Assembly: GCA_013343275.1 (NCBI GenBank)
Contig: CP046106.1
Span: 128,001-192,000 of the forward strand
Origin: Candidatus Nanohaloarchaea archaeon
GTDB lineage: Archaea > Nanohalarchaeota > Nanosalinia > Nanosalinales > Nanosalinaceae
DNA length: 64,000 nucleotides
Direction of reading: 5' to 3'
The translations under genes and the position numbers were made by a program. A model generated the notes under the pieces. It was given only the letters and a program-made list of their open reading frames with translations, searched no databases and was not told where the DNA came from. Shown here in pieces: positions 1,021-13,915 of the stretch; the first letter of the stretch is position 1; every line of letters starts with the position of its first letter.

Positions 1021-2499
1021 TCATACAGATAGCTCATAGAAAACTTCTCTTCCTTCTCTGGTTTTCTCTATCAATCCTTCTTCTCTCCAGTCTGACAGGT
1101 GATTTCTGGCCATTGTCTCTCCTATATCCATTACTTGCTCCACTTTCTTTCTCTTGAACTTTTGCTCCTTGACAAGCTCTCCTGGAATGCTCACATAGTC
1201 ATTGGAGTTCTCTCCATCGCTCTCTTGCTCCTTGATCTTCTCCTCTACTCTCTCATTATGCTCTTCTACACTCTCCTGGATCTCTTCTCTTACCTGTTTA
1301 ACTTCATTATCCCAGTTCCTGAGTTCTCCATCAAGTTTCAACCATTCCTGTCTAAAGTTCTCTCCAGGTTCTCTATGCCTGGCTCTTGTAGGATAACTCT
1401 TGAAGTCTTTAATCAATGTCTCTGGAGTCCAGAGATAGAAATAATGATCTTCAAGGCCTTTGATCCTCTCCTTATCCTGTTTGGAAAACTCTTCTTTAGT
1501 TCTCTCATCAAGAACTGTCTGGATTCCTTTAGCAGTATTCAACCTGCCAGTAAACAGGTAGTTTAACTGACTTCTAGCTATATCTGAAAGCTCCTCAGGG
1601 TTCTGAGTATCAATGAAAACACTTACTCCCATCTGCCTGCTTTCCTTCAAGAACTCCTCTATAATCTCTCTAAAGGCCTCTGAACTACCTCCATTACCAT
1701 TATCATCTTTCAACAGTTTATGACCTTCTCTAATGAAGATAACAAGGTAAGGCTCTATATCCCCCTGTTTCAATAGTTCCAAGATTCTCTGCAAGATATG
1801 GACTACAGTGAACTTAGTGATTTTATCTGACTGAACTTGAGCAGTCTCCAATATCATTCTCCTGTCCTCACTGTTCAACTCCTTAAACAAGTTGAGTGAG
1901 AGAGGACTGTTTTCACTGGTTACAAGCCTGTGATCTGCAAGCTCTATCAGTGAGTGCTGTATAGGTCTCTTACCTCTCTTAGTTGGAGAACTGATCTTGA
2001 TCCCTGAACTACTTTCTATATAGTCCTGATCTGGTAGCTCCTCAGAGAGCTTCAATAGATCTGCAACATTAGGACTATCCATCTCCTGAATATCGTTTAT
2101 CATGGCGTTAAACAAGGCCTCATGGCTTTGTGATACATCTCCAAGAAGTGCTTTCAAGGAGTCCTCTGAGAGAGTCTTGATAGGTATAGTGAATGGTTGA
2201 ACTGGCTCTGGTTGAGTAAGATTCAAATCAGGTGTAAGTGGTTTGTAGATCTTTCCAGGAAAGGCCTTAGGCTCAGGGTTCTCAGGGTCCTGCCATACCT
2301 CATAGTTTGATCCTTCAGGTAGAACTGAGAATGAGCCTTCTATCTTTGATGAGAATATATCTACTACTTTGACATTCTCCTTTTCCTGGAATACTTCCAT
2401 AGCTCTCTCCAGGATCATTGATTTACCAGTTCCACTTTGTCCTGTTACTCCTGCTCTAACAGGTTTCTTACTGGGATGTGGGAATCTGACCTGTTTCAT
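1021..2499 (-). CDS. HerA/FtsK/VirB4-like P-loop ATPase with C-terminal winged HTH
   Basis: Walker A GQSGTGKS; Walker B-like IFIREGH; KESRQMGVSVFIDTQNP motif typical of HerA/FtsK; C-terminal ...RNHLSDWREEGLIEKTREGREVFY wHTH. Confidence 0.8.
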   Translation of the reverse strand: MKQVRFPHPSKKPVRAGVTGQSGTGKSMILERAMEVFQEKENVKVVDIFSSKIEGSFSVLPEGSNYEVWQDPENPEPKAFPGKIYKPLTPDLNLTQPEPVQPFTIPIKTLSEDSLKALLGDVSQSHEALFNAMINDIQEMDSPNVADLLKLSEELPDQDYIESSSGIKISSPTKRGKRPIQHSLIELADHRLVTSENSPLSLNLFKELNSEDRRMILETAQVQSDKITKFTVVHILQRILELLKQGDIEPYLVIFIREGHKLLKDDNGNGGSSEAFREIIEEFLKESRQMGVSVFIDTQNPEELSDIARSQLNYLFTGRLNTAKGIQTVLDERTKEEFSKQDKERIKGLEDHYFYLWTPETLIKDFKSYPTRARHREPGENFRQEWLKLDGELRNWDNEVKQVREEIQESVEEHNERVEEKIKEQESDGENSNDYVSIPGELVKEQKFKRKKVEQVMDIGETMARNHLSDWREEGLIEKTREGREVFYELSV

Positions 2500-3699: not shown

Positions 3700-3859
3700 T
3701 GTGGTTCACCTTTTTGGTTAAATCTGGAAATGTAGATCCTGGCAGGAGGGATTTTAGCCCCCTGCTCAGGAGAGGGAGCCATGGCTCTTACTTGGAAATG
3801 GCTCAGACCTGCCTTGCGACAGGTAAAAAGTCTAGATAGCCAGTTAGACTGCTCTAGAC

Positions 3860-4156
3860 TCATCTTTCTGGAATATTGATCTTGTTGAGGACTATCTCCC
3901 CTTTCTCAGTGGTTTTGTAGAAAGTCCTACCATCTGCCTCACCTGTTTCCTTAACTAGGCCTTTTTCCTGCAGTTTCTCTACATGGTATTCTATGGTCTG
4001 ATGGGCCTTTCTGAGGTCTTTTGCAATGCTTGAGATGTAATCCTGATTCTCCAAGTGAGCTAATACTTTCCTGGTAGTTCTGCCTCCTACTTCTCTCACC
4101 AATGCATCAAAGTTGGTTTCCTCAGTGTTTCCAGAGTCTTTACCTATACTACTCAT
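3860..4156 (-). CDS. ArsR/MarR-like winged-helix regulator
   Basis: ISSIAKDLRKAHQTIEYHVEKLQEKGLV...FYKTTEKG wHTH pattern; start moved to ATG 4156 after GGGGTGAG. Confidence 0.8.
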   Translation of the reverse strand: MSSIGKDSGNTEETNFDALVREVGGRTTRKVLAHLENQDYISSIAKDLRKAHQTIEYHVEKLQEKGLVKETGEADGRTFYKTTEKGEIVLNKINIPER

Positions 4157-4250
4157 GGAACTCACCCCAATTCTCAACTCTATCTACTGATTTTCTCACT
4201 TGATTCTGAACTGTATCTGAGTGGTTGAATGACTCCATAATCTTGATCAC

Positions 4251-6515
4251 CTAGACTTTTGCAACCTTTCCAGGTTCAGGCTCAAAGAACTCGCCCTCAC
4301 TTTTCAGAGATTTTAAGGCCTCCTCTATCTTCTCTTCATCTGCATCCAGAGACTCTATAACTTCTTGCTCATCTTTCTGGCTATCTCCAACTTTCTCCCT
4401 AACTAGCTCCATTACTCCTTTCTTAACCTGAACTGAATCAGTGTTATCAGAGCTTTCAGAACTATCCAAGCCTTGAATCTGTTCTACTGTTATAGGCTCT
4501 CCTTCTCTGAAATCCATAGAACATCTGCATTTAGTGAAAAGCTCTATAGCCCTCTGAGCATCAATCTTCTGGGCTTTATCATCCAGTCTAGACTTTGCAA
4601 ACATCAAAGTGAGCTGGATGAGGTTCCTGATCATTCTTGGGCTTTCAGACTTAACCTCTGCCTTAATGTTGTTAGCCTCAGCATCTGCTAGATTTCCTTT
4701 GATGAATTTGTTGATCAGGTTTCCTGCATCCTCAGTTAATACTGGCTCTTTCTCCTTTGCTAGGCCTCTGTAAATGACCTGAGTCTGCTTATCCATTCCT
4801 TCATCTCTCTCACTGCCTCCTGTTTCCTGGTATCCCTGAATCATCTCATTTGCTATCTCAGAGAGATTCTGTTGCCTGATTCCATAGATCAAAGAGAATC
4901 TATCCTTGAAACCTTGAACCATCTCAGGCAGGTAACTATGTAGTTCCTCATACTGCCCTGTTTCAAAGTCTAGTTTCTCAGTAAAGTTACCAGTAGCTAT
5001 TATAGTGGCTCTACCATTCAGTTCAACATTCTGTGAGGCCTTATCAATAGGAAATTTACCTCTCTCCATAGCAGTGTTAAGCCTGCCTAGTTGCTCACTT
5101 CCTATCTTATCCATCTCATCTACTGAAAGAACTCCTTGATCTGCATAGACTAGCTTTCCTGCTCTGATCTCATAGCCTCCATTATCTAGGTTCTCAACTG
5201 TGGCAGTAAGGCCTACTCCTGTAGAGTTATTATCTGCATAGTATGTGTTTGAGAAAGTCTCCTGGATGTATTCCTGCAGATCTGATTTAGCTAACCCTGG
5301 ATTAGCAACTATCAGGGAATGGATTCTGTCATCATCTCCTCTAGATTCATTCTCTACTCCTCCTATCAGGCTTGCACCCATCACCTCTTTCAAGGTCTGA
5401 GCATCCACAATGTGAGGAGCAAGGCCTAGAGCAAACTCTTTGAAGGCATATGTATCAGGACTATTATTCCAGACCTTAACCTTCTCTTTTACCTCTTCTA
5501 TATCCTCTTGAGAAACTTCCTGCATCTGATCCTTTCTATCCAACCTCTTGAAACTCATTACATCTAGAACAGGATCTAACTCTGTCTGATCATTCTGTCT
5601 AGGAACTCCTCTGATAACTCCTGAAACTCTTACTTTCCTACCTGGAGTAAAGGCCTGCTTAGTATCCTCACTGATATTCTCCTTCTTGATAAAGGCCTCT
5701 AAAGGCTTATTTTCTACAGTCTGAGTTGAAAGAGTAATCTCCTTAACATCCTGAAAGTTTCTATCAACAAGGTCAAATTTCCTGCTACCACATTGACACT
5801 TGTAAGGAGATTTCAGCTTATCTCCATCCTGCTCCTTCTCATACAGGTCTCCACACTTAGAACATTCAAACTCTGCAGAAACTACTTTGGTATAGGAATC
5901 TTTCTCTCCCTCTACCATGGCCTCAATCGTTACAAACTCTCCAATATTCCTGTTATCTCTGGCCTCAGAGATCGTTTTCTCATAGTAATCAACATCTACA
6001 TCAAGCTCCAAGGTAAGACCAGGCAGGTTATCTGATAGATCCTTCTCTATCTCATCCAGAAGATCTATGAACTCATCAGTATTTTCCTCTGCCCAGTCCA
6101 AGATCTCAAACCTTATGCTCTCCAATTCACTCAGGCTTAACTCATAGACTCCATCATCTAATAAGGCCTGAGAAACCTTTTCTCTACCTTCTAAGGATAA
6201 ATAGTTCTTGATATCGCTCCTGATGTCCTTGTAACCTTCAGGTTTGCTGACCTCTTGCTCATCAGGGTTGAGAAGAGTTTCTGCAACATTCTCTCCTCTC
6301 TCATTAATCTCATAGTGGCCTCTCTCAGGTTTGTCCAGGAGGTTTCTCTCATCCTTACTTTCCAGTTTTCTCACTATCTTTGAGAAAGCAGGCTTAGATC
6401 CCTCATAGTTATGATCCTCTCTGAACTTCTCATAAAGATCTGATAAACTTGCAGGAGAGCCTATCTCATCCTGTTTTTCGTAAAACCAGGTAAGGAATTG
6501 GTCCTGTCTGTTCAT
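4251..6515 (-). CDS. mcm: MCM-family replicative helicase with extra N-terminal wHTH (element-encoded)
   Basis: Zn finger CSKCG...CQCG, Walker A NPGLAKS, Walker B SVDEMDK, DRF arginine finger, SPR sensor-2, C-terminal wHTH; GGAGG SD before ATG 6515. Confidence 0.92.
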   Translation of the reverse strand: MNRQDQFLTWFYEKQDEIGSPASLSDLYEKFREDHNYEGSKPAFSKIVRKLESKDERNLLDKPERGHYEINERGENVAETLLNPDEQEVSKPEGYKDIRSDIKNYLSLEGREKVSQALLDDGVYELSLSELESIRFEILDWAEENTDEFIDLLDEIEKDLSDNLPGLTLELDVDVDYYEKTISEARDNRNIGEFVTIEAMVEGEKDSYTKVVSAEFECSKCGDLYEKEQDGDKLKSPYKCQCGSRKFDLVDRNFQDVKEITLSTQTVENKPLEAFIKKENISEDTKQAFTPGRKVRVSGVIRGVPRQNDQTELDPVLDVMSFKRLDRKDQMQEVSQEDIEEVKEKVKVWNNSPDTYAFKEFALGLAPHIVDAQTLKEVMGASLIGGVENESRGDDDRIHSLIVANPGLAKSDLQEYIQETFSNTYYADNNSTGVGLTATVENLDNGGYEIRAGKLVYADQGVLSVDEMDKIGSEQLGRLNTAMERGKFPIDKASQNVELNGRATIIATGNFTEKLDFETGQYEELHSYLPEMVQGFKDRFSLIYGIRQQNLSEIANEMIQGYQETGGSERDEGMDKQTQVIYRGLAKEKEPVLTEDAGNLINKFIKGNLADAEANNIKAEVKSESPRMIRNLIQLTLMFAKSRLDDKAQKIDAQRAIELFTKCRCSMDFREGEPITVEQIQGLDSSESSDNTDSVQVKKGVMELVREKVGDSQKDEQEVIESLDADEEKIEEALKSLKSEGEFFEPEPGKVAKV

Positions 6516-6559
6516 TGTCCTCCAAACCTCCTCTGAGAGAAATGCCCATGGCCCCATGT

Positions 6560-6672
6560 GGTTAAGATGGTTAATTGGGTTAATTGAGGTAAATAAACCA
6601 TCTTGTTAGGCCTTGATAGTAGATTTTTCTGGGAATTAACCTCCTTTCTTAACCTAATTAACCTAATTAACC
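6560..6672. repeat. Inverted array of 9-bp iterons (candidate element origin)
   Basis: GGTTAAGAT-GGTTAATTG-GGTTAATTG at 6560-6586; inverted AATTAACC at 6634, then CTTAACCT-AATTAACCT-AATTAACC at 6648-6672. Confidence 0.75.
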
Positions 6673-6708
6673 ACCTACCCCCTAAGGTGTTTCTATATAG
6701 TATTTCTT

Positions 6709-7044
6709 TCATTGGATCAAATCACCATTACTTGGAATACGCTTTCTGTGGTTGACTGGAGCTTTTTGCAGGCCTACAGTTCTTCTGCAGTTAGGACAGG
6801 CCCAGTTCAAAAGGTCTTTCTGAGAATCTAGTTGATCTATCAGGTGTTCAGATGCAGGATCTTGGTTAAGGAATTGCTTGAGCTTCTTCTCAAAAACTGC
6901 TCTATGAAATACTGCCTCACATTCTGGGCATTGCAGTCTTCTAGGAGCTTCAAATCTGAACAGCTCCAGGACTCTTTCAGTTTTCTCACTGGACTTGAAC
7001 TCAAAGTTTGTTGGAGTCTCTACCATTGTCCTCATCAGAATCAC
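6709..7044 (-). CDS. Zinc-ribbon protein
   Basis: CPEC...CPNC. Confidence 0.7.
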   Translation of the reverse strand: MILMRTMVETPTNFEFKSSEKTERVLELFRFEAPRRLQCPECEAVFHRAVFEKKLKQFLNQDPASEHLIDQLDSQKDLLNWACPNCRRTVGLQKAPVNHRKRIPSNGDLIQ

Positions 7045-7274
7045 CTCTCCATCTCTGGAGCTGTCTGTTCTCCTGGTTTTGAGTTCATTAATTGTCTGAA
7101 GGCCATGTCAAGAAGATCTCTAACTACTTGGTTTCTGGATTTGTCTTCTGAGGTCTCTGCCAGATCTCTGATTATCTCATCTTGGTAGTTATCTATGTAG
7201 AAACCTACTTTGACTTTCTCTGATTCCTTATTCTGTAATGTAAAGCCTTTTTTAGGGTCTCTAAGCTGATACAT
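7041..7274 (-). CDS. Ribbon-helix-helix (CopG-like) protein
   Basis: VKVGFYID-NYQDEIIRDLAE-SRNQVVRDLL strand-helix-helix pattern. Confidence 0.7.
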   Translation of the reverse strand: MYQLRDPKKGFTLQNKESEKVKVGFYIDNYQDEIIRDLAETSEDKSRNQVVRDLLDMAFRQLMNSKPGEQTAPEMER

Positions 7275-7413
7275 TGTTAGAGCTTACCTCATTGCCAGGG
7301 CCACCAACCCTGGTATCTTCAGATTTTTCTTCTCTGACTTCCTGGAGCTTCTTCTCCAGGTGTCTTTCTAGCTCCTCTCTACTAGCGCCGTCGTTTTCAG
7401 ACTCTGTTCTCAT
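7261..7413 (-). CDS. Small hypothetical protein (50 aa), probable first gene of the leftward operon
   Basis: MRTESENDGASREELERHLEKKLQEVREKK...; below the ORF-track cutoff; overlaps the RHH start. Confidence 0.5.
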   Translation of the reverse strand: MRTESENDGASREELERHLEKKLQEVREEKSEDTRVGGPGNEVSSNNVSA

Positions 7414-7449
7414 ACTTAGTTCTTACAGCTAACATCATCTTATATTCGA

Positions 7450-7467
7450 ACTAACATAGATGTTAGT
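7450..7467. promoter_or_regulatory. Palindromic operator between divergent transcription units
   Basis: ACTAACAT-AG-ATGTTAGT; extra CTAACA half-sites near 7429 and 7523. Confidence 0.55.
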
Positions 7468-7538
7468 AAAATAGAACTTCTTTAGAGGGTTTTTTCCTGT
7501 GAGAAAGACTTAAAATAATAGACTAACAAAAACTTACT

Positions 7539-8732
7539 ATGGAAGATCTGAAAACTGAAAGCGATCTGATTCCTCTAGGCTCAGTTAAAGGAGACCAGGT
7601 GAAGTTCGAACTTGCCTACATCTATACTCTAGGATTAATGCAGGAAGAAATGAAGGATCCATATCAGGATCGAATAATTGAGGAAATGAAACCGCATTTA
7701 AGGAAAATATATGGGGAAGAATGGGTTGTTAACCAAAGTAAGCCTAAATTACGGCAGAAGATTAAAAGACTCGGAGGAGGCTCAGATCTTGTCGAAAAAA
7801 CGAGAGATGAAAGAAAAGTATATCATAAGCTTTCTACAAGGGGAAAAGAGTTCTACAAGAATATTAAGCCAATATTTTCCAGTTTTTCCTCAACAGACAT
7901 TGAAGAAGCGATAATTGACGAAATGGAGACATATATCCATGGTGATCATCACTCTGAATATTACGGGCATGGATATACCTTAGACGACTTCAAGGACTTG
8001 GTGGAAAGGGATTATGATGGAGAAAGAGATTTCGACAAACTTAAGGAAGATGTGGCAACCAGGCTTGGGGTAGGGCCATCTAGAGAAGTATTTGAAAACC
8101 AGTTCTATCAGGTTTTCTCTGATATGCGAGAACAAGCTGTTCCTCGAAAAATGGCTACTTTCCAATCTAGAAAAAACCTCATTATAGAGGCTTTTGAAGA
8201 GCAAAATTCCTCAAAAGAATTGCTTTCATTTGAAGAGATTGGAAATAAGACTGAAATTCTAGATTATCTGCCAAGAAAGGTTTTGAAAAGAGATGTAGAT
8301 AGGTTGCAAGGAGTAGAACCATCTTCAGATAGGATAAAGAAGGCTGTAAAGCAATATGGAAAAAAGGAAGATGAAATACATGTGGCTGATGTAAATGAAG
8401 TATTGAGGCTCTTTAACGACTATGAAAGAGCTGAAGAGATTTTAGAACAGGCAATAAGTAATGATGCTATTTATTTAGAGAGGGAAGGTTCAAAAATCAA
8501 GTGGAAATCTTACGAGTCTCGAAGAAAAGAGAAAGAGAGTAAAGAGGATAAAGAGAATAATGGATACTTAAATTCGCATTCCTACGGTGTCGAAGATTTA
8601 GGTTTCGCTAAAAAGCATCAACTCAAACCTGTTTTGAAAGAAAAGAAAGGTAAATACAAGCTGAGTGATATGGCTAAAGAGTTCCATAGGTCAAATGTTT
8701 ATCTTCCTAACAGGGATATAATCGGTCAATAA
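7539..8732 (+). CDS. Hypothetical protein with N-terminal wHTH-like domain
   Basis: 397 aa; ...DLVEKTRDERKVYHKLSTRGKEF wing motif; divergent from the replication operon. Confidence 0.7.
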   Translation: MEDLKTESDLIPLGSVKGDQVKFELAYIYTLGLMQEEMKDPYQDRIIEEMKPHLRKIYGEEWVVNQSKPKLRQKIKRLGGGSDLVEKTRDERKVYHKLSTRGKEFYKNIKPIFSSFSSTDIEEAIIDEMETYIHGDHHSEYYGHGYTLDDFKDLVERDYDGERDFDKLKEDVATRLGVGPSREVFENQFYQVFSDMREQAVPRKMATFQSRKNLIIEAFEEQNSSKELLSFEEIGNKTEILDYLPRKVLKRDVDRLQGVEPSSDRIKKAVKQYGKKEDEIHVADVNEVLRLFNDYERAEEILEQAISNDAIYLEREGSKIKWKSYESRRKEKESKEDKENNGYLNSHSYGVEDLGFAKKHQLKPVLKEKKGKYKLSDMAKEFHRSNVYLPNRDIIGQ

Positions 8733-8752: not shown

Positions 8753-9142
8753 TTATCTCTTTCTATATCTCCACTTATTCTCTCCAGGCATCAAAGGGGA
8801 TAGAATCTTCTTATTGTAGTTCTTACTACTTTGATTTAGCTTCTTCAATCCTTTTTTAGCAACACCTGCAGAGAATCCATAGTCAGCTCCTAAAGCAGTT
8901 GCTAAAGTCTTGAGATTCTTCATTGCTAGACCCATTCTGGTTACTTCAGGACCTATTCTGTCAGTATTATGTTTGAATGTCAGAAGGAACTTATCTTCTT
9001 CTGAGTGTAGCCTGCCTGGTAGATAGTGTCTGTTCAGTGCTAGAGTTCCTTTACTATTCTTCGCTATTTCTAATCTGCCTGCAGGTTTGGCCTCTTGGGG
9101 AACTTTCTCTTTTATTCCAATTTTATTGTAAATTCTTCTCAT
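8753..9142 (-). CDS. Hypothetical basic protein
   Basis: 129 aa ORF with ATGA overlap to the upstream gene. Confidence 0.5.
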   Translation of the reverse strand: MRRIYNKIGIKEKVPQEAKPAGRLEIAKNSKGTLALNRHYLPGRLHSEEDKFLLTFKHNTDRIGPEVTRMGLAMKNLKTLATALGADYGFSAGVAKKGLKKLNQSSKNYNKKILSPLMPGENKWRYRKR

Positions 9143-9930
9143 TCTTGAACCTCCTTTGCTCTAGAAACAAAGTCGTTAATTTCTCTCCTAGCTCCATCTA
9201 AGAGAGATTCTAACTCGCTTACTTTGGTTATGTAAGGAACTTTTTCTCCTGGGTTTACTCCAAGCTCATCCACCATTACCTGCATTGGAGGTGCTTTCAT
9301 CATTATTTTGTCTGACTCAGCTTTCTCAACTGCTGACTCTACCATATCTAGAGGTTGGGAAATATACATTTCTAGAGGTAGCTCCTCTATCTGTCCACTA
9401 TCGTCCATTAATCTAAATTTCATGGATAATTTCCTGTAATCTTTGTAGTAGTGAGCAGAAGTATCTTCTACCTCTGTTACTCCACTGCTTTCTTCATCTC
9501 TGAATCCATGAACCTCTTTCTCCAGCCATTCAACTTCTTTTTTCATATCTAACTGCTTAGCAAGCCTTAAAGCCATTCTAGCTATAGTGGAGACATCTTC
9601 ATCTGAGTCTATCTTGCTTTCAATTTTCTTTAGAAGTTTTCTTTCATCAGAGGTCTTTTCTTCTTCCTCTTTTCCAGATTCTTCCTCAAATTTCTGCTCA
9701 ATCCTGTCAAAGTTAATGTCTCCTTGGGCTTGGAATGCGTTAACTCCTTCAGCATCTTCAAATATCTGCTCTTGAGACCTATCTATCAGGTTTTTGATCT
9801 CATAACCTACTTTACCTACTCCAAGAAATCCTAGAGTGGTAACAATTAGAGATAGTATTCCTATGGCATGCTCTTGTAGGTATACTGCTAGTGAAATATT
9901 TTCACATCCTTTGGGAATTTTAATATTCAA
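9139..9930 (-). CDS. TM-anchored AbiTii-like domain protein
   Basis: N-terminal TM helix; DSDEDVSTIARMALRLAKQLDMKKEVEWLEKEVHGF resembles the AbiTii consensus (S.LLR....A.KL......W...EL.GY). Confidence 0.65.
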   Translation of the reverse strand: MNIKIPKGCENISLAVYLQEHAIGILSLIVTTLGFLGVGKVGYEIKNLIDRSQEQIFEDAEGVNAFQAQGDINFDRIEQKFEEESGKEEEEKTSDERKLLKKIESKIDSDEDVSTIARMALRLAKQLDMKKEVEWLEKEVHGFRDEESSGVTEVEDTSAHYYKDYRKLSMKFRLMDDSGQIEELPLEMYISQPLDMVESAVEKAESDKIMMKAPPMQVMVDELGVNPGEKVPYITKVSELESLLDGARREINDFVSRAKEVQE

Positions 9931-12484: not shown

Positions 12485-12497
12485 AAGGGCCGGTCCA
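12485..12497 (+). repeat. Direct repeat copy 1, AAGGGCCGGTCCA (candidate att)
   Basis: Identical to 13903-13915; followed by CTA; lies at the compositional boundary. Confidence 0.6.
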
Positions 12498-12854: not shown

Positions 12855-13556
12855 ATGGGGCAGAGTAGGAGACAAAACGAGCCAGAAGTAGAGGATATTA
12901 ATTTAGATGAAATACCTCCAATTGGAGCTCCTATTCTTTCACTAGGCCTTCTCTATGCGGCAGTTACAGTAGGTTTTGGAGATCTAATGATAAACTTAGT
13001 AGTCGGTGGCGCAGGAGTAGTGCTCTTGGGATTTTTCGCTTTCAAGCTTGGAACATTGTACAAACAGCGAGGCCCTAAAAGAGCAGTTAGATGGGCGACA
13101 ACCGCGCCCGTCGATAGAGTAGAAGACTATTCTCTCGACCTCCAAACAAGCTCGGGAGTAGAGAAAACAGAGGAAGGGATAACTCTAGAGCACTTGAGAG
13201 AGATAGATCCTTATGATTTCGAAGAGTTCGTAGCGAAGGTATGGAGAGGTAGAGGATATGAAGCAGAAGTAACACAGGGAAGTCAGGATCGAGGAATCGA
13301 TGTTGTAGCAGAGAAATCAGAACCATACAACGAGAAAGAGCTTATACAGGTAAAGCGGAAAGGAGAAGGAAACAAGGTTAGCGCTCCAACAGTTCGGAAA
13401 TGTTCTGGACTGAAAAACAAGAACGGGGTCGATAAAGTATTGGTAGTTACTTCAACAGACTTCACAGCTCAGGCAAAGGAAGAAGCCGAAGATTATAACT
13501 TAAAATTAGTAGATGGACGTAAACTTTTGGAATTATACGAAGATAACGTAGAATAA
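12855..13556 (+). CDS. Mrr-family restriction endonuclease with N-terminal TM helices
   Basis: PYDFEEFVAKVW...DRGIDVVA...LIQVKR PD-(D/E/Q)xK Mrr_cat motifs. Confidence 0.88.
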   Translation: MGQSRRQNEPEVEDINLDEIPPIGAPILSLGLLYAAVTVGFGDLMINLVVGGAGVVLLGFFAFKLGTLYKQRGPKRAVRWATTAPVDRVEDYSLDLQTSSGVEKTEEGITLEHLREIDPYDFEEFVAKVWRGRGYEAEVTQGSQDRGIDVVAEKSEPYNEKELIQVKRKGEGNKVSAPTVRKCSGLKNKNGVDKVLVVTSTDFTAQAKEEAEDYNLKLVDGRKLLELYEDNVE

Positions 13557-13902: not shown

Positions 13903-13915
13903 AAGGGCCGGTCCA
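13903..13915 (+). repeat. Direct repeat copy 2, AAGGGCCGGTCCA (candidate att)
   Basis: Identical to 12485-12497. Confidence 0.6.

Follow-up and report, generated by a model that had tools for sequence, protein, structure and literature searches.

How does a mobile element that carries a replicative helicase gene, and no initiator gene that we could recognise, begin its own replication? The question is raised by a 64-kb stretch of a nanohaloarchaeal genome, G000:C1:128001-192000 (the window, whose numbering is used throughout unless a genome or contig is named; the host genome, G000, is a single contig of 915,886 bp). There, an integrated element encodes an MCM helicase, and directly upstream of its gene lie seven copies of the hexamer GGTTAA in two opposed sets, spanned by a short open reading frame (ORF). 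A preliminary description of this DNA had proposed that the MCM acts as a combined initiator and helicase at these repeats. We propose that the array is the origin of a self-loading helicase, read by the MCM's own winged helix, and regard the balance of probability for this as roughly even.

Opposed GGTTAA repeats upstream of mcm

Seven GGTTAA cores fall inside 113 bp (6560-6672), three on the plus strand facing four on the minus strand. In the arm nearer the MCM start (6560..6583, plus strand), cores begin at 6560, 6569 and 6578, a regular 9-bp spacing. The farther arm (6636..6672, minus strand; TTAACC on the plus strand) comprises units at 6636-6641, 6649-6654, 6658-6663 and 6667-6672, of which three are 9 bp apart and the remaining one is offset by 13 bp. 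Reading the letters directly thus bears out the preliminary description, which had reported three 9-bp-spaced units facing inverted copies. The array lies 44 nt upstream of the MCM start codon (ATG 6515), within the 193-bp interval (6516-6708) that separates a zinc-ribbon gene from mcm.

Across the window GGTTAA occurs 37 times, seven of them in the array, and GGTTAAT nine times, five of them in the array. We scanned the host genome under a strict rule, in which a 6-mer is repeated at 9 bp and its reverse complement likewise at 9 bp, all within 160 nt; exactly one locus in 915,886 bp satisfied it, the window array. A looser scan returned 15 loci, among which the window array is the sole one with seven copies, the others having six or fewer. 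Because the strict scan finds a single locus in the genome and the looser scan gives no other seven-copy locus, the array is real, and its origin by chance is ruled out.

The arms enclose a 52-nt central spacer (6584..6635) of 65% AT, which contains AGGCCT (as TAGGCCT at 6607-6613) and, read on the minus strand, a TATA-like TTTATTTA at 6589-6596. This spacer had been described as AT-rich with an AGGCCT inside it; the AGGCCT is there, but the AT-richness is only mild (0.65 against 0.59 over the surrounding 3 kb).

GC skew was considered as a sign of an origin and rejected, as it tracks the coding strand and is uninformative on the point. Scans of 3700-7700 for sigma-70 promoters and for terminators yielded 9 and 6 hits, respectively, close to the means of 7.0 and 3.3 in shuffled sequence, and are not applicable to archaeal promoters.

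An archaeal-type MCM with an added N-terminal domain

The minus-strand MCM frame (4251-6557) is 768 aa long, and its first ATG lies at 6557. We take ATG 6515 as the start, because 14 homologues (33-84% identical) begin at the residue that matches it (the MNRQ position) and because Shine-Dalgarno-like GGAGGT and GGAGGA motifs stand just upstream (6518..6531, minus strand); ATG 6557 is probably not used. The gene (4251..6515, minus strand) then encodes 754 aa. The five further loci with arrays that are introduced below have comparable GGAGG or GGGGGTG motifs ahead of their MCM start.

Pfam recognises the AAA+ P-loop domain (PF00493, E 1.2e-28; 100.2 bits against a cut-off of 23.3) and, through MCM_OB (27.5 bits against 24.8), an N-terminal OB fold. 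Four zinc-site cysteines (C218, C221, C240 and C242) are invariant across 26 sequences. MCM_lid scores 26.6 bits, slightly under its cut-off of 27.4, and AlphaFold2 (AF2) places helices at 595-666 and 677-739. The full-length AF2 model, with a mean predicted local distance difference test score (pLDDT) of 80.4, consists of an extra domain, a low-confidence linker and an otherwise ordinary MCM. Judged by its sequence, this is a true archaeal-type MCM, predicted to form hexamers and to have 3'-5' helicase activity.

The extra domain comprises residues 1-82 (6270..6515, minus strand) and is followed by a low-confidence linker of ~12 residues. Modelled from 30 aligned sequences, the N-terminal part reaches pLDDT values above 90 over residues 1-80 and has the topology H-H-H-hairpin-H, with helices at 3-18, 24-35 and 41-52, a hairpin at 60-70 and a last helix at 72-82. 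The best VIA-align match is HrcA (Z 10.8), followed by PadR, RosR, MarR and SSV1 F-93, all of them winged-helix DNA-binding domains; TubR (Z 8.9) and an ORC/Cdc6 chain (Z 8.8) are also found. Foldseek against the PDB gave no match at E <= 0.001, its top rows being DtxR, IdeR and MntR at E about 0.01 (root-mean-square deviation 2.3 over 82 columns), and VIA-align makes the clearer fold call. A profile of the domain run against PDB sequences returned weak winged helix-turn-helix (wHTH) matches only, the best being a PhiH1 repressor-like protein (E 0.0087). With phmmer, the domain retrieved 17 proteins among 1.84 billion representatives; 14 of them are 560-808 aa long and match at their N terminus, and three are only 85-175 aa long.

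An extra N-terminal wHTH not found in cellular MCMs had been noted previously, and Pfam, AF2 and VIA-align all agree with that observation. The cellular MCM of the host (G000:C1:111749-113716) shares 30% identity with the element MCM, in an alignment that starts no earlier than residue 114 of the 768-aa frame, and the cellular MCMs of 39 relatives likewise align without the N-terminal part. On the strength of the models, MCM residues 1-82 are an extra winged helix, absent from cellular MCMs. Helicase and winged-helix DNA-binding domain are joined on one chain, as in a self-loading initiator-helicase, and we infer that the domain is sequence-specific.

A midpoint-rooted FastTree tree groups 24 of 25 element MCMs in a single clade (support 0.93) that excludes nanohaloarchaeal cellular MCMs. 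The tree left out P0016, P0017, P0021, P0024, P0025, P0028 and P0030 (distant, short or partial); L014, L017 and L020 were omitted because their contigs are short, and L026 and L027 because their frames exceed 1000 aa. A search of IMG/VR with patterns taken from alignment A1 and from proteins P0004 and P0008 did not find the family. In phage and plasmid collections all matches stopped short of the N-terminal domain, the best (21-26% identity) beginning at residue 93 or later.

The MCM is the sole replication protein found in the element, whose scanned ORFs include no initiator family. Cdc6_C has three matches in the genome and none within the element (G000:C1:123260-141915), so that the earlier remark that no Orc1/Cdc6 is visible in part of the element extends to the whole of it. 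An Orc1/Cdc6 gene standing beside origin recognition box (ORB) repeats, the mark of an Orc1/Cdc6-ORB origin, is accordingly missing from an element without a Cdc6_C match.

Two side observations concern cellular MCMs. A gene of ~250 aa just downstream of the host cellular mcm (match at G000:C1:114270-114503) matches the C-terminal ~70 residues of MCM (E 3.9e-4), and its counterparts in about ten relatives match the MCM C terminus at E-values down to 1.6e-7. In G012, G014, G024, G026, G038 and G039, the cellular MCM matches are split into two or three pieces within frames of 1019-1951 aa, as expected of intein-bearing MCM genes.

The array layout recurs with changing sequence

Among 70 genomes from the phylum, four encode a winged-helix MCM, and so do three metagenome contigs, giving seven loci with upstream DNA: the window, L045 of Nanohaloarchaea archaeon SG9 (a family-level relative of the host), L005 of G011, L050 of G058, and the contigs L023 (4.6 kb), L024 (4.8 kb) and L025. 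Among 20 metagenome MCM loci, L023-L025 alone match the N-terminal domain; the other 17 encode distant MCMs and were left out of this census, but were still scanned for repeats.

Repeats of the kind that the preliminary description expected upstream of homologous winged-helix MCMs are indeed present at six of the seven loci, as inverted arrays of 9-bp units with a different sequence in each. Every one consists of two head-to-head sets of two or three units (three and four in the window), spaced by 9 bp or occasionally 10 bp and situated 15-51 nt upstream of the MCM start; opposed short repeats of this kind adjacent to the helicase gene are what a self-loading initiator-helicase would use. The cores read GGTTAA in the window, TGTGAC/G in SG9 (where the module is doubled), A/GTGTGG in G011, TGTG/AGTG in L023, CTTTAA in L024 and TATAGAC in G058. 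A layout that is kept while its sequence changes points to a site read by a fast-evolving specific protein, as expected of a co-evolving protein-site pair.

The MCM winged helix is the sole DNA-binding domain found in all six array-bearing loci, ribbon-helix-helix (RHH) genes being present in four and a small wHTH gene in two, although this argument is limited by two of the contigs being shorter than 5 kb. In the predicted recognition helix, T-F-G/Y-N is common to the three loci with TGTG-type cores and is not seen in the others. We treat this match between helix and core as weak evidence, because the same three loci are also closer relatives of each other.

Runs of G (GGGG, often paired) flank the array in all six loci, in the window at 6540-6559 and 6676-6686. 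Elsewhere they partly coincide with Shine-Dalgarno motifs, but not in the window or in L050.

Repeats were also seen beside two more distant MCM genes. L035, from an element very rich in AT, has at 2716-2950 three CGTTATTTC units opposed by some twelve 9-bp units in inverted orientation, after which come (TA)n and (TTA)n tracts. The gene for an 808-aa MCM, 23% identical to the window MCM, lies about 290 nt downstream of this site, which is possibly a separate instance of 9-bp iterons next to the MCM gene of an element. The IMG/VR contig L044 has an AT tract and a CTAGTA-based inverted repeat (5500-5570) within a 191-aa ORF (5441-6016), the stop of which overlaps the start of an MCM gene (6013-7998), a loose parallel to a repeat site in a coupled ORF.

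A reading frame kept open across the array

In the window, a 66-codon ORF (6512..6712, minus strand) runs across the array and overlaps both the stop of the upstream gene and the ATG of mcm by ATGA, just as had been described. Each of the six loci with an array has an ORF on the MCM strand that runs across the repeats. Its start overlaps the upstream stop as ATGA in four loci, is adjacent to it in one and overlaps it by 34 nt in one; its end overlaps the MCM start as A/GTGA in four loci and by 8-11 nt in the other two. The encoded peptides (43-100 aa) are unrelated among the six loci, and that of the window has no Pfam match.

The intergenic stretch is open in one forward frame at six of six loci and on the reverse strand at one of six (Fisher one-sided p 0.008), yet the reverse strand carries nearly identical repeats. 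In mononucleotide shuffles the per-locus probability of an open frame ranges from 0.015 to 0.31, with a product of about 5e-7; we consider the comparison between strands the fairer control, because shuffles break the repeat structure. This pattern suggests selection for the passage of ribosomes through the array, that is, translational coupling and not a conserved small protein, and the earlier idea that the array is embedded in a translational-coupling ORF gains support. For the transcript of 6500-6715 the folding energy is -55.5 kcal/mol (z -2.0), a stability equalled by seven of 200 shuffles, and a translating ribosome would open this predicted hairpin of moderate strength.

A candidate self-loading origin and its alternatives

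In the mechanism that we propose, the 193-bp interval (6516-6708) would act in cis as the replication origin of the ~17-kb element that is integrated at tRNA-Ile. The seven GGTTAA units would serve as iterons, read by the linker-tethered N-terminal winged helix of the element MCM. Binding on both arms would position MCM rings at the two sides of the spacer in opposed orientations, and the helicase would load itself without Orc1/Cdc6, host replisome parts being recruited afterwards. Throughout, the array would be translated within the short ORF, which would chain mcm translation to that of the upstream genes. The identity of the binder, the self-loading and the firing of the origin are what we infer here. 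Because the arms flank the TATA-like motif and lie 44 nt from the mcm start, the same site probably doubles as an operator that throttles mcm expression. A bolder version, which we think unlikely, has the self-loading MCM origin placed inside the coupled ORF deliberately: iteron-bound MCM would block its own transcription and translation, and ribosome and polymerase traffic would reset origin occupancy, tying copy number, MCM dosage and upstream expression together in a 190-bp module.

Several observations weigh against an origin read by the MCM. The window spacer is barely richer in AT than its surroundings and that of L050 is not richer at all (0.54 against 0.56 over the local 3 kb; compare 0.71 against 0.60 in L005 and 0.87 against 0.45 in L023). 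L025 has a winged-helix MCM and no array in 3.6 kb upstream. Iteron likeness follows MCM phylogeny, and the match between helix and iteron may reflect shared descent alone; contigs under 5 kb (L023, L024) may miss DNA-binding genes lying outside them. Finally, the array has a TATA-like motif beside it and lies in DNA that is translated and probably transcribed together with its neighbours, a setting that fits a pure operator just as well. The main rival is indeed that the array is an operator only, controlling mcm expression when bound by the MCM winged helix or by another regulator, with replication starting elsewhere or depending on host Orc1/Cdc6. The arms around TTTATTTA, array ends 15-51 nt from the start codon in six loci, the weak AT content of the spacer, the position in a translated stretch and the persistence of the L025 MCM without an adjacent array would all fit such an operator. 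We nevertheless judge it somewhat improbable: three units per arm in two opposed sets exceed the need of a simple repressor dimer, no other such repeat cluster exists in the element or the genome, and the layout resembles that of known self-loading helicase origins, as far as these are described in PMC9371898.

Two neighbouring genes offer other candidate binders. One encodes a possible RHH protein (7041..7274, minus strand; 77 aa) upstream of the array, the other a small stand-alone wHTH protein (3860..4177, minus strand; 105 aa; HTH_27 E 3.2e-7) downstream of mcm. Either might bind the repeats as an operator or as a partition (centromere-like) site, leaving the MCM winged helix otherwise employed. 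RHH and TubR-type proteins bind arrays of short repeats, and TubR is among the fold matches of the MCM domain. RHH-type genes lie upstream of the array in four of six loci. In G011, an ORF preceding the MCM gene encodes a protein 42% identical to the RHH-like one of the window, and in G058 a gene shortly after mcm encodes a protein 44% identical to the small wHTH. Neither protein, however, is found in all six array loci; the RHH match of the window (RHH_1 E 0.063) is below the Pfam cut-off, the array is downstream of the RHH gene, beside mcm and not at the head of the operon, and no ParA- or TubZ-type gene is seen beside it. Binding by one of these two proteins in place of the MCM is distinctly unlikely in our estimation. 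The repeats could instead act in the mRNA, as a hairpin before the mcm ribosome site that is opened by ribosomes on the bridging ORF and gates MCM synthesis, with no protein partner for the DNA. The conserved ORF and the transcript fold are in keeping with this, but a hairpin needs no 9-nt periodicity within each arm, which all six loci have, and the z-score of the fold is modest, making such a role very improbable. Least credible of all is that the 66-codon ORF encodes a functional small protein whose repetitive sequence the repeats merely mirror. Such an ORF is kept in six of six loci, but its peptides are unrelated, vary from 43 to 100 aa and have no Pfam match in the window, and the arms are reverse complements, so that the symmetry is in the DNA and not in the peptide.

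The integrated element and its other genes

The genes on the MCM strand, namely the possible RHH protein, the zinc-ribbon protein, the small wHTH protein and a HerA-like ATPase, have many overlapping stops and starts. The zinc-ribbon-like protein (6709..7044, minus strand; 111 aa) has two CxxC pairs and weak Pfam zinc-ribbon matches (best E 0.002). At the end of the MCM operon lies the HerA/FtsK-like ATPase (1021..2499, minus strand; 492 aa; HerA_C E 1.1e-5, phrog_7035 E 1.8e-12).

The host is a nanohaloarchaeon with a 0.92-Mb genome, of the same family as SG9, and the Haloferax context assumed for it earlier was mistaken. Between about 123 kb and 141 kb of this genome, GC content falls from about 0.47 to 0.34-0.44. 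A tRNA-Ile(GAT) gene (G000:C1:123260-123334, outside the window) is followed by a tyrosine integrase gene (PF00589 E 7e-13; tRNA and integrase together span L046 5260-6831, that is, G000:C1:123260-124831). Our repeat search yielded a candidate right attachment site at 12487..12497 (plus strand), an 11-nt copy of the tRNA-Ile(GAT) 3' end, and a second copy at 13905-13915; no repeat of the tRNA-Ile 3' end beyond 11 nt was found. Because the repeat is merely 11 nt long and occurs at two places, the right border is tentative. The sequence past the first copy resembles that past tRNA-Ile, a hint of a tandem or decayed second element of 1.4 kb. Taken together, these sequence features suggest an integrated element of about 17 kb at tRNA-Ile, possibly followed by a remnant of 1.4 kb.

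We recognised no capsid gene in the element. Defence-like cargo in or beside it includes an AbiTii domain (E 3.8e-10; 9139-9930, minus strand), an Mrr-type restriction endonuclease (E 3.9e-29; 12855-13556, plus strand) and a weak HEPN match (L046 7424-8095, minus strand). Contigs from four metagenome runs include pieces 95-99% alike over the MCM operon, some with different cargo, and nothing in them shows a circle, an empty site or a copy number. One contig (run X1) joins L047 2231, at the integrase end, to 17708, at the attachment-side end, with 8027 different letters between them; a second joins L047 12780 to 17653 with 2607 other letters between. Such joins around a replaced interior indicate that related elements share their ends and carry other cargo.

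Comparison with known systems

Classical iteron plasmid origins have direct repeats of ~17-22 bp in helical phase and a dedicated non-helicase Rep; the units here are 9 bp apart in two inverted sets. ORB elements have a conserved consensus. Like archaeal Orc1/Cdc6-ORB origins, the array combines inverted binding repeats beside a replication gene with nearby G runs, but the element has no Orc1/Cdc6 gene and its 9-bp units differ between elements. In phage lambda, the iteron-bearing ori lies within the translated gene O, the initiator's own coding sequence. The array shares with it a position inside a translated frame of a replication operon, although here that frame is a separate short ORF whose peptide is not conserved.

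Origins of SV40 large T antigen, papillomavirus E1 and phage P4 alpha have short repeats in opposed orientation around a melting region. These proteins belong to helicase superfamily 3 (SF3) and not to MCM, their origin-binding domains differ in fold or position, and their hosts are those of eukaryotic viruses or a bacterial phage. They resemble the window MCM in fusing a replicative hexameric helicase to an origin-binding domain, a fusion common among SF3 helicases in the account given in PMC4889955.

By analogy, the closest worked example is Rep and ori of Staphylococcus aureus pathogenicity islands (SaPI), as presented in the relevant parts of PMC9371898. There, a helicase reads six to twelve short iterons beside rep through its winged helix and manages without a loader; a central region divides the iterons, and each side has two or more of them, pointing opposite to those across the centre. 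The likeness thus extends to a winged-helix helicase, iterons by its gene in opposed sets, and an integrated island of about 15 kb. In SaPI, however, the winged helix is C-terminal, ori is downstream of rep, the helicase is mostly SF3 and the host is bacterial (PMC9371898), whereas here an N-terminal winged helix sits on an archaeal-type MCM and the array is upstream, made of 9-bp units, translated and weak in AT at its centre.

Within MCMs, a 2026 preprint on Thermococcales viruses (PMC12934983) proposes that an added N-terminal winged helix joins origin recognition with the helicase. Those proteins likewise are mobile-element MCMs with an added N-terminal winged helix, in elements without Orc1/Cdc6. 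According to PMC12934983, whose relevant passages name no cognate repeats, their extension measures about 200 aa; the one here has about 94 aa. None of the 17 representatives retrieved by phmmer with the window domain is shown to be from Thermococcales. An MCM is mentioned for the tailed virus DNTV-1 in bioRxiv 10.1101/2025.02.15.638363, the main text of which does not contain 'iteron' or 'origin of replication'. Our literature search found no paper describing the nanohaloarchaeal winged-helix MCM family or its repeats.

To our knowledge, genetic tools are lacking for nanohaloarchaea and other DPANN archaea, and none of their plasmid origins has been characterised. If the proposed origin is real, DPANN archaea would gain with it their first defined pair of initiator and origin, as well as a minimal replicon ready for use; if self-replicating, one gene and about 190 bp would be an obvious starting point for a vector in these organisms. 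Six differing arrays with matched winged helices are natural material for specificity swaps, and the conserved bridging ORF poses a separate puzzle, namely how an operon can tolerate a structured site in its DNA. The locus also offers a clean test of whether an archaeal/eukaryotic-type MCM can load itself at a specific sequence without Orc1/Cdc6, which so far has been proposed only, for Thermococcales viruses (PMC12934983). The principle is known, and its MCM version has already been hypothesised there; new are a nanohaloarchaeal family with a candidate site, its natural specificity variants and an ORF conserved across the site.

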